This document shows, in pieces, positions 36,200 through 37,043 of a stretch of DNA of 64,000 nt. Under the pieces are notes generated by a model. That model saw only the letters and a program-made list of their open reading frames with translations, searched no databases and had not been told where the DNA came from. The stretch is from Dehalococcoidia bacterium (GTDB lineage: Bacteria > Chloroflexota > Dehalococcoidia > Plut-88900). The stretch is taken from the NCBI GenBank assembly GCA_965207225.1, contig CBDBLV010000002.1, positions 288,001-352,000 on the forward strand. The letters are read 5' to 3'. Both the position numbers and the translations under genes were made by a program. The stretch's first letter is position 1; the number at the start of each line of letters is the position of its first letter.

Positions 36200-36291
36200 G
36201 GGCCGCATTATAGACCTTTGGGGCGGGGCGGTGTGCCGGCGGCACCTAGATATTCAGTTGTGGGGTTTCGGTTTGGTCTGGTTTTGGAGGG

Positions 36292-36765
36292 GTCGGCGAT
36301 GGAAGACGCACCTGGTGAGCCGGTGGCCTCCACTCTGATGCGGTGATCCGGCTGTCGGGGGCCATGGAGGTCCGCCGTGGGCGGATTGCAGCCGGCCGCG
36401 CCCTAGCGCTCGATGTGTGCCCCGGTTGTCCGGGCAGACAAGCCGGGCCTTGACCCGCTCCCAGGCGCCCTTAGGGCGCAGCGGGGGCCAGTGATCGGGC
36501 GGGTGGCCCCCGGGAGTTTCTTATTACGTGGCGCACCCGCAGGTCTCGAGTGCCCCAGCGACCCCAGGTTGTGCTTGATTTGGTGGGGCGCAAGCTCGCC
36601 GACGGGCCAACCACCGGTAACTTGTCCGGAGCGGGGCTAGCCAGCCCGCCACCCCTATCTTGATATAGCGCAAGTTCGCTACAGACCAACCTCCGAGACG
36701 GTCTCTCGGCGGGGGGTGGCCGGTCTGCTTTGGCTTCTATCCAGGGCGTCTTTCCATCGCCTGAC
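36292..36765 (-). ncRNA. Putative large structured non-coding RNA (unassigned family)
   Basis: 23-bp closing helix with 3 bulges (36292-36315/36741-36765), many internal stems, G-U pairs that form only on the minus strand, no credible ORF. Confidence 0.7.
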
Positions 36766-37015
36766 TACCAGGGAAGGGGGCACGGGACCCGTGAAGATGA
36801 GGAGATGGCGCTTTTCGCTTGTGCCGCAACCTTCCTGCCTCGCATGGGGGGCGATTGGCCGGTCGCCCCTACAAGAGAGGGGAGAGGTATTGGGATGGGC
36901 TAGGGCGTTGAGTCCCCCGATTTCTCGGGGGCGATGCCTTGGGTCGGGTCTCGGGGGCTTCCCTGGGTTTTTGGTTCCTCCTTAAATTACTGAATATCAG
37001 TTCGAACTATGAAAC

Positions 37016-37043
37016 AGTTTAGCACGGGTGTAATAGAAGTCAA
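37016..37043 (-). promoter_or_regulatory. Putative sigma70 promoter pointing into the structured RNA region
   Basis: TTGACT(37043-38)-N16-TAAACT(37021-16) with extended TG; same architecture as the promoter at 10009. Confidence 0.65.

Follow-up and report, generated by a model that had tools for sequence, protein, structure and literature searches.

A dispersed family of self-contained units that probably encode structured non-coding RNAs in an uncultured Dehalococcoidia genus

Which kind of element occupies a 1.4-kb (1412 nucleotides, nt) intergenic spacer in the genome of an uncultured Dehalococcoidia bacterium, and what is made from it? The spacer separates a minus-strand MFS transporter gene from a plus-strand open reading frame (ORF, 37621-38514) and lies within a stretch of 64,000 nt (contig CBDBLV010000002.1, positions 288,001 to 352,000; G000:C2:288001-352000), which was analyzed as a whole and is called the window below. 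A preliminary description had read the locus as a single free-standing gene for a large, pseudoknotted and undescribed non-coding RNA (ncRNA), transcribed from the minus strand and comparable to OLE, ROOL and GOLLD. From the analyses reported here we conclude, with a probability of roughly 0.55, that the spacer holds one type-A copy of a dispersed family of self-contained transcription units, which encode structured ncRNAs and give rise to a stable core RNA closed by a long helix (P1). The family appears to be a real and undescribed RNA, but a dispersed repeat, and the literature collection searched yielded no description of an element of this kind from Dehalococcoidia. Positions refer to the window; G000 stands for its own genome (4.03 Mb, 5 contigs, about 61% G+C), G001-G008 for the other species of the genus and L-numbers for fetched loci.

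The segment 36280-36780 (501 nt) folds on the minus strand with -246.2 kcal/mol (z-score -4.09, none of 100 shuffled sequences as good) and on the plus strand with -256.0 kcal/mol (z-score -1.93, 3 of 100 shuffled sequences as good). An alignment of 33 distinct type-A cores from at least 5 species (73% mean column identity), termed A3, gave an RNAalifold consensus of 139 pairs, in which 95.2% of the 4573 cells are standard pairs, compared to 93.1% in shuffled alignments and 37.8-44.3% when the partners are slid by 1-3 columns. It contains 127 doubly changed cells (41.7 ± 8.6 in shuffles, 0 of 500 of which reach this number), and its covariation score amounts to 0.133, as opposed to 0.094 after shuffling (reached by 0 of 500) and 0.032-0.053 after sliding. 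Altogether, three of the five measures of compensatory change exceeded all 500 shuffles as well as all slid controls, and the 14 doubly changed pairs fall in 8 helices. Read in the minus sense, 381 G-U cells face 53 A-C cells, and pairing drops to 88.0% when the plus sense is read instead. Many internal helices show compensatory changes, and G-U exceeds A-C by 7:1, both of which point to selection on an RNA of minus sense, which is the strand proposed at the outset and also the one with the stronger z-score.

Most of the helices that had been drawn by eye recur in the homologues. P1 (23 bp, Table 1) is kept in 33 of 33 type-A homologues with 97.1% of its cells paired. Among the internal stems, 36348-54/36389-95 is 100% paired in A3 with one-sided changes only, and its inner TCCGCC/GGCGGA hairpin is 96% paired with 3 doubly changed pairs; 36465-79 (95%, 2 doubly changed pairs), 36533-39/36547-53 (92%, 3), 36681-91/36718-28 (94%, 3) and the hairpin 36420-47 (84%, 2) are likewise kept, and the inner CCGAGA/TCTCGG hairpin is 98.5% paired and invariant. 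The segment 36718-28 has two possible partners, namely the local 36681-91, with 94% pairing and an alternation of G-U and G-C, and a distant one chosen by RNAalifold, with 98.8% pairing and one-sided changes. The stem 36482-90/36504-12 is paired in only 65% of the cells and is not conserved. The term pseudoknotted survives in part, since among the crossing pairings ACCCC/GGGGT is retained at 96%, whereas CCTCCA/TGGAGG (58%), CCCGCTCC/GGAGCGGG (69%) and GACAAG/CTTGTC (76%) are not.

The comparison with Rfam 15, which includes the models of OLE, ROOL, GOLLD, raiA, HEARO, RNase P, transfer-messenger RNA, signal recognition particle (SRP) RNA and group I and II introns, is in line with an undescribed RNA. 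At gathering thresholds the window yields only a tRNA at 60312-60382; at an expectation value (E) of up to 10, nothing matches in 36249-37034, and all 45 weak matches lie in 37035-37489. In eight loci with other core types, matches are found only outside the units (RNase P, SRP RNA, tRNA and a sub-gathering match to a miRNA model), and G000 has its own RNase P RNA elsewhere. A coding reading was rejected: ORFs of 41-89 amino acids (aa) on both strands are broken by single-base insertions or deletions between copies, so that no reading frame is conserved, and the three longest overlapping ORFs (72, 75 and 89 aa) have no Pfam match. A plus-strand ATG following GAGGAG was also considered as a start, and its frames end differently in different copies.

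The copy number of the element decides whether it can be a single gene. The 1412-nt spacer has 147 matches in its own genome, with 290 BLAST pieces in 121 places, and the number of copies varies by segment, from 5-7 for the core (36309-36730) to 15-17 for the left end (36249-36305) and 19-41 for 36749-37040. Five type-A copies in G000 are full-length, i.e. the copy in the window, C1:90876-91630, C5:1357434-1358146, C5:783297-784085 and C5:737400-738428; they show 73-88% identity, and in the last two about 85 nt are duplicated internally. A census of G000 with a strict P1 pattern (a loose one gave 751 mostly chance pairs) counted 44 leader starts; behind 34 of them both P1 strands are found, and behind 28 the tail motif as well. 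The family is multi-copy in all 8 sister species, too. Given that eight sister genomes are closed, it is unlikely that the other copies are assembly artefacts. The outer 10-bp inverted repeat (36249-58/36989-98), which had been thought to join the transcript ends, is found in the window's copy only of the five aligned, and its left arm is the conserved 3' end of the element. A single lineage-specific ncRNA gene with a role like that of OLE, ROOL or GOLLD and with its ends joined by the outer repeat would account for the comparable size and complexity of the core, the missing Rfam match and the promoter of its own, but not for five full-length copies and 34 P1-closed units in one genome, an outer repeat specific to one copy and the lack of the unit from the same site in five of nine species. 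Because of the copy counts we exclude this explanation and assign it next to no probability.

Each unit consists of a series of modules, which are summarized in Table 1 together with the flanking features.

Table 1 Features of the type-A unit and of its surroundings in the window.
Feature	Position	Strand	Remarks
High-copy repeat, about 120 bp	37091-37212	minus	103-128 BLAST pieces per position in G000 (37089-37205); upstream of the unit
Intrinsic-terminator-like hairpin	37198-37157	minus	19-bp stem followed by T6; promoter/terminator scan
Sigma-70-type promoter	37016-37043	minus	TTGACT, 16 nt, TAAACT; TG before the -10 element; promoter/terminator scan
Leader module	36889-36985	minus	57 module matches and 44 leader starts in G000; alignment of 5 copies
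Optional GC-rich hairpin module	36827-36889	minus	17 matches in G000; between leader and 87-nt module
Conserved 87-nt module	36740-36827	minus	Ends in the P1 5' strand (36765-36741); 23 matches in G000
P1-closed multi-helix core, type A, 467 nt	36295-36761	minus	Alignment of 33 homologues, covariation, RNA contigs
P1 3' strand	36292-36315	minus	Pairs with 36741-36765 (23 bp)
C/A-rich, G-poor tail	36251-36294	minus	Ends in ACAACTGAATA (36261-36251); weak similarity between copies for about 20 nt beyond
MFS transporter gene	34910-36208	minus	Pfam MFS_3/MFS_1; co-oriented, starts downstream of the unit
Low-GC ORF	37813-38514	plus	Shares a 2.2-kb insertion block with the RNA unit; does not belong to the RNA

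The minus-strand promoter named in the preliminary description was reported at exactly the same position by the promoter scan, and it is a regular part of the family. Among 108 distinct leader starts from G000 and the fetched loci, 96 passed a promoter test that only 6 of 2000 random 110-mers passed (-35 element with at least 5 of 6 matches, TAnnnT -10 element with at least 4 of 6, spacing of 16-18 nt, end of the -10 element 26-38 nt before AAGGAGG), and in 95 of these 96 the -10 element ends 26-34 nt before the leader. The promoter region exists in three variants (TTGACA-17-TATCAT, TTGACA-17-TATATT and TTGACT-16-TAAACT), indicating that the hexamers are kept while their surroundings diverge. 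A terminator test demanding a perfect stem was passed by 11 of the 108 upstream regions and 6 of 2000 controls, which is an enrichment, although the test is too strict for counting units. The repeat of about 120 bp that contains the hairpin in the window consists of two GC-rich hairpins and has more than 100 copies in the genome, often just upstream of units and also alone.

The leader opens with a Shine-Dalgarno-like AAGGAGGAAC (36983-36974), which is not followed by a start codon within about 15 nt, and in the window's copy it holds an extra hairpin insert. Other units (locus L030) have a shorter sequence where the optional hairpin module would be, whereas the 87-nt module is present in copies of 85-90% identity in all 9 genomes of the genus, irrespective of the core type. 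The tail module comprises the P1 3' strand and about 45 C/A-rich nt ending in ACAACTGAATA and has 16 matches in G000. According to the alignment of five copies, homology ends at about 36252 (TATTCAGTTGTGG) and about 36985 (CCTCCTTAA); in the strict census, leader-to-tail lengths range from 478 to 818 nt and P1-to-P1 lengths from 198 to 553 nt.

What this frame encloses differs between subfamilies of units. The outer 10 bp of P1 are constant across all subfamilies, while its inner part reads AGACGCC/..GCGUC in 10 units and GGUCC/GGACC in 24, i.e. both strands change and pairing is kept. Between the P1 strands, the sequence is wholly different among subfamilies, with an apparent identity of 42-63% when an alignment is forced, and the 61 distinct units of G000 and the fetched loci fall into core clusters of 23, 15, 13, 3, 2, 2, 2 and 1 members, each of which folds as its own multi-helix domain. 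Two motifs recur near the 3' side of several subfamilies, CCGGCUG...CAGCCGG and GGAACAC, and the helix CCGGCUG/CAGCCGG reads CCGGCCG/CGGCCGG in another subfamily. The GGUCC-type core is 308 nt long; 9 copies taken from G000 are 90-95% alike and add only 2 further doubly changed pairs, and only 3 units of this type are among the fetched loci.

The family is confined to one genus among the genomes searched, marginal matches apart, which agrees with the lineage restriction suspected at first. By BLAST-type search, 10 of 41 genomes match: G000, each of the 8 other species of the genus, all with many matches, and one of 29 further genomes of the class with a weak match (E 5.8e-4); the 3 other genera of the family have none. 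The 3' domain was also represented by a covariance model (R1), which is based on 37 sequences from three subfamilies. R1 locates 9 places in G000 and, in a sample of 151 genomes of the class from 110 genera, matches G000, 5 of 5 genomes of the genus and, marginally, one further genome (E 8.5e-4). An exact 21-mer of the element occurs in 54 genome-contig stretches, 53 of which belong to records named 'MAG: Dehalococcoidia bacterium', mostly closed chromosomes; the 54th, on a contig binned as Planctomycetota, has only 28 nt in common inside a coding region and was dismissed as a chance match. The element was not found in the viral contigs or in the plasmid and phage collections searched, and a P1 21-mer is present in two metagenome contigs with weak R1 scores of about 15 bits.

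Indeed, the core is found in RNA libraries. Part of the window is contained in 24 sequencing runs of 11 studies, several of which have small shares (0.12-0.20) and are labelled sponge or marine metagenome, from which we claim no habitat. The runs with the largest shares (0.35-0.73) stem from one sample and may be the source of the assembly. Contig coverage of 35700-37900 at 82% likeness was determined for two metatranscriptome runs (X15 and X20), a DNA run of the same study and the run with the best share. RNA contigs cover the P1-closed core (36290-36763) at a depth of 13-63 in X15 and about 21 in X20, whereas the leader region (36884-37031) reaches 1.7-3.5, 36810-36883 has none and the depth over the MFS gene is 0 in X15 and 0-4 in X20. 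The DNA run gives depths of 48-69 for the leader region, in which many copies are summed, 10-47 for the core and 3-10 for the MFS gene. The core is thus 4- to 35-fold deeper than the leader in the contigs of the RNA libraries, and this enrichment over leader and MFS gene is not what carry-over of DNA would give. With respect to the metatranscriptome check suggested earlier, RNA contigs do cover the core, while strand and true ends lie beyond the resolution of contigs.

The genes next to the units raise an alternative, namely that the unit acts in cis as a portable promoter with a long structured 5' leader, which insulates the downstream gene from transcription further upstream, stabilizes or attenuates its transcript or promotes read-through via the rRNA-leader-like motif at the 3' end. 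For the 61 distinct tails with sufficient flanking sequence, the next ORF is co-oriented in 50, opposite in 11 and missing in 1 (G000: 12, 1 and 1), and the co-oriented ORFs mostly start 40-190 nt from the tail. This bias, the terminator upstream combined with a strong promoter inside the unit, and a tail ending in the 11-mer ACAACTGAATA of the 16S leader, of which the 23S leader has a close variant, all speak for a cis-acting module. However, the orientation count rests on crude calls of ORFs of at least 120 aa, and orthologous sites, which are not independent, were counted more than once. Furthermore, 34 downstream proteins span 42 unrelated Pfam families, all of ordinary metabolism or housekeeping (aminotransferases, enoyl-CoA hydratases, Lgt, FolD, a tRNA synthetase and UvrA are among them; commonest family Aminotran_3, n = 4), so that there is no common signal to sense and no consistent tie to one gene family or pathway, as would mark a riboswitch. 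The depth of the core in RNA contigs is far above that of the downstream gene, the cores are wholly different between subfamilies at one and the same site, and the MFS gene does without the unit in five of nine species. As stated in the preliminary description, this gene has its own -10 box, a TATAAT at 36212-36207, 43-52 nt past the tail of the unit, and the box is also present in sister species without the unit. The strong bias toward positions upstream of genes keeps a cis role under consideration, although we regard it as unlikely.

The TATAAT of the MFS gene lies 7 nt ahead of an in-frame ATG (36199; region 36197-36212, minus strand), an arrangement that is kept in unit-less sister species, and this spacing suggests that the MFS mRNA may be leaderless. 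Some units have RNA genes as neighbours: one sister species has a unit some 1 kb ahead of its RNase P RNA gene (L053 3528-5402), another has a unit as the divergent neighbour of its SRP RNA gene (L036 3695-4773), and in G000 the 5S gene is preceded by one unit and the 16S gene, at a distance of 1.7 kb, by another. The rRNA genes of G000 are single-copy and unlinked (16S C4:510741-512337, 23S C5:49658-52796, 5S C4:597450-597567), and the 16S and 23S leaders have TTAACAACYGAATAG in common, which overlaps with the conserved 3' end of the RNA units. The 11-mer ACAACTGAATA itself occurs 14 times in G000 compared to 0.5 expected, i.e. in 9 C/A-rich tails of the unit type (7 directly behind the P1 3' strand), in the 16S leader and at 4 other sites. 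All 9 genomes of the genus have it in their 16S leader, with the surrounding sequence nearly conserved in two other genera, and this part of the leader pairs with the 16S trailer as a processing stem. The motif of the rRNA leaders may resemble the boxA antitermination element, and the part shared with the units might serve processing, antitermination or neither.

Comparison of orthologous sites revealed that whole units come and go. MFS orthologues with 87-97% amino-acid identity exist in all 9 genomes of the genus; in G008, G007, G005, G001 and G004 the gene is back to back with the gene of a flavin-dependent (FAD) oxidoreductase (DAO; 38507-39712 in the window) across about 115 nt, while a unit lies between the two genes in G000, G002, G003 and G006. 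The cores at this site are of type A in G000, of the L088/L090 cluster in G006 and G002 and of the L089 cluster in G003. Similarly, the downstream flank of a type-A unit of G008 (L012) is 97.5% identical to C4:403831-403435 of G000, where the unit belongs to another cluster, and at a further site another species (L030) has 868 nt in place of 9 nt in G000 (C4:249241-249249). The 868-nt insert comprises a terminator hairpin, TTGACA-N18-TATAAT, leader, type-A core and tail. The joint gain or loss of promoter, terminator and RNA points to a spread of the units as DNA, whether through duplication, through recombination of conserved frames or through deletion.

These patterns would also fit a purely selfish, non-autonomous DNA repeat, comparable to a miniature inverted-repeat transposable element (MITE) or a bacterial interspersed mosaic element (BIME), the stems of which serve DNA recognition or are leftovers and the transcription of which is incidental. 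Like a MITE, the units are non-coding, shorter than about 1 kb and present in dozens of copies per genome; they cluster with other intergenic repeats, have a mosaic modular build and a high identity within the genome, and they are present or absent at orthologous sites. On the other hand, no terminal inverted repeat is common to the copies, the 10-bp outer repeat being confined to 1 of 5 full-length copies. Many copies with target-site duplications had been named beforehand as the sign of a MITE; the copies exist, but neither such a duplication nor a terminal inverted repeat was seen at the two pairs of filled and empty sites that were read (L030 versus C4:249241-249249, and the MFS-DAO site). 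Matches to the Y1 transposase (PF01797) and to TnpB-type proteins (PF07282) amount to 0 each in G000, which is rated 92.3% complete, so that the genome lacks the enzymes expected of REP/BIME repeats with a RAYT or of IS200/IS605 derivatives such as PATE and omega RNAs. Compensatory changes in many helices with a sevenfold excess of G-U over A-C, a promoter at a fixed distance despite diverged surroundings, and enrichment of the core in RNA contigs also speak against a merely selfish repeat. This explanation stays alive because of the high identity of the copies and the presence/absence pattern, and we consider it quite improbable.

The empty MFS-DAO spacers (L084-L087, L091) hold sequence resembling the last 20 nt of the unit, which overlaps a promoter-like TTGACA-N17-TAGATT facing the oxidoreductase gene. 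A lost unit may have left this sequence behind, or it may be a preferred target or a chance similarity. With regard to site-specific integration, there is no second copy of the tail-like motif in the window and nothing comparable at the other empty site.

Several points weigh against a family of units that make stable core RNAs. Two measures of covariation did not exceed the shuffles, as the number of pairs with any double change is 14 compared to 11.2 ± 1.8 in shuffles (reached by 49 of 500) and that of further pair types 61 compared to 65.4 (reached by 500 of 500), and the remaining measures are inflated, because the tested structure was derived from A3 itself and the rows are related. Within type A, P1 is invariant or shows one-sided changes only. 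The RNA evidence consists of Logan contigs from two runs of one study, which provide no strand-specific reads, ends or levels, and the ends of the RNA contigs coincide with repeat borders, where DNA contigs stop as well. The preference for sites in front of co-oriented genes is compatible with a cis role no less than with a trans-acting RNA, copies within one genome that are 88-95% alike are expected of a recently spreading selfish repeat, and the core RNA comes without a known protein partner, target or phenotype.

If the units do produce core RNAs, they might work as follows. Behind the terminator-bearing repeat, the sigma-70 promoter would start a minus-strand transcript, the leader of which, about 100 nt long and beginning with the Shine-Dalgarno-like motif, opens no reading frame. 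The end of the conserved module forms the P1 5' strand, and P1 closes a multi-helix core of 200-550 nt. The primary transcript may then be trimmed at or near P1, in the manner of rRNA processing stalks, such that the core accumulates and the leader is lost. The G-poor, C/A-rich tail would either end transcription in a Rho-type manner or let some of the polymerases continue into the next gene. Units would spread and exchange their cores through DNA duplication and recombination between the frames rather than by an enzyme encoded in the unit. A bolder version of this reading, which is possible and which we put forward tentatively, sees in the family a previously undescribed type of modular RNA cassette system, in which a constant expression and processing frame (insulating terminator, promoter, leader, P1 stalk and a tail with an rRNA-leader motif) serves interchangeable trans-acting RNAs (for example scaffolds, assemblies or ribozymes) instead of debris. 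Recombination would exchange these RNAs among chromosomal sites, and a single lineage would thus keep several unrelated stable RNAs of 200-550 nt at 30-40 loci.

With OLE, ROOL and GOLLD (PMC12286853, PMC5737381, PMC3413148) the family has in common that it is non-coding, several hundred nt long and rich in helices, with a long-range closing stem, compensatory change and a function that the sequence does not reveal. It differs in lacking a match to their Rfam models, in its confinement to one genus among those searched and in its dozens of chromosomal copies with interchangeable cores and promoters of their own, directly upstream of ordinary genes. The Correia elements of Neisseria and the pneumococcal BOX, RUP and SPRITE repeats are also multi-copy, intergenic and modular and can bring a promoter to a neighbour (PMC2649163, PMC3049150, PMC2229807), and the inverted repeats of Correia elements are described to form an RNA hairpin that RNase III can bind or cut (PMC2649163). 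However, they are repeats of about 100-200 bp with terminal inverted repeats, whereas the units here measure 480-820 nt and have their long helix inside, around a covarying core of 200-550 nt that exists in several unrelated sequence families.

A likeness to rRNA genes lies in the strong promoter, the untranslated leader and the long helix around a stable RNA, and the final 11 nt of each unit match exactly a piece of the processing stem of this genus, on its 16S leader strand. In contrast to rRNA genes, the enclosed RNA is not rRNA, the unit has the common motif at its 3' end instead of in its leader, and cleavage at P1 is presumed. Elements such as HEARO/IscB, TnpB omega RNAs and ORF-less group II introns are likewise structured, have many copies and vary in presence among relatives; but the units here have no Rfam match to HEARO, IS605-orfB or group II introns, no TnpB-type protein was found in G000, and its reverse-transcriptase genes are not beside units. 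As the promoter is copied along with the unit, the spread is likely to occur at the DNA level. Taken together, the family shares features of large ornate RNAs and of transcribed repeats and belongs to neither.

The four reverse-transcriptase genes of G000, none of which adjoins a unit, are located at C2:158087-158773, C5:1548409-1549095, C5:1553608-1554405 and C5:1671488-1672288; two of them, with equal scores, lie in open frames of 586 aa, and the other two measure about 640-650 aa and have a split RVT_1 match. On the other side of the unit in the window, the low-GC ORF (GC 0.447 at 37900-38399 versus about 0.61 genome-wide) has no Pfam, PADLOC or NCBIfam match, and among the nine genomes of the genus a homologue (45-55% identity) is found only in the upstream flanks of G003 and G006; it looks horizontally acquired. 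Between this ORF and the unit, 37250-37600 is made up of more repeat modules, each present in 10-40 copies; one feature among them is an A+T-rich perfect palindrome at about 37444-37478, which matches other loci both ways round with 91-100% identity.

Bacteria have few large, complex RNAs of unexplained function, and every new class to date has pointed to unexpected biology. The family described here is unusual in that it is multi-copy, with a promoter for each copy and one conserved frame around several folded cores, and with about 40 units of 0.5-0.8 kb plus companion repeats it affects about 1% of the genome. Should the cores prove functional, the uncultured Dehalococcoidia genus would possess a repertoire of new large RNAs and a natural, reusable frame for the expression and processing of RNA. 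If the units are selfish, they would represent a new type of bacterial repeat, which spreads without a recognizable transposase and brings strong promoters to about 30-40 ordinary genes per genome, with a bearing on both the regulation and the annotation of these genomes.

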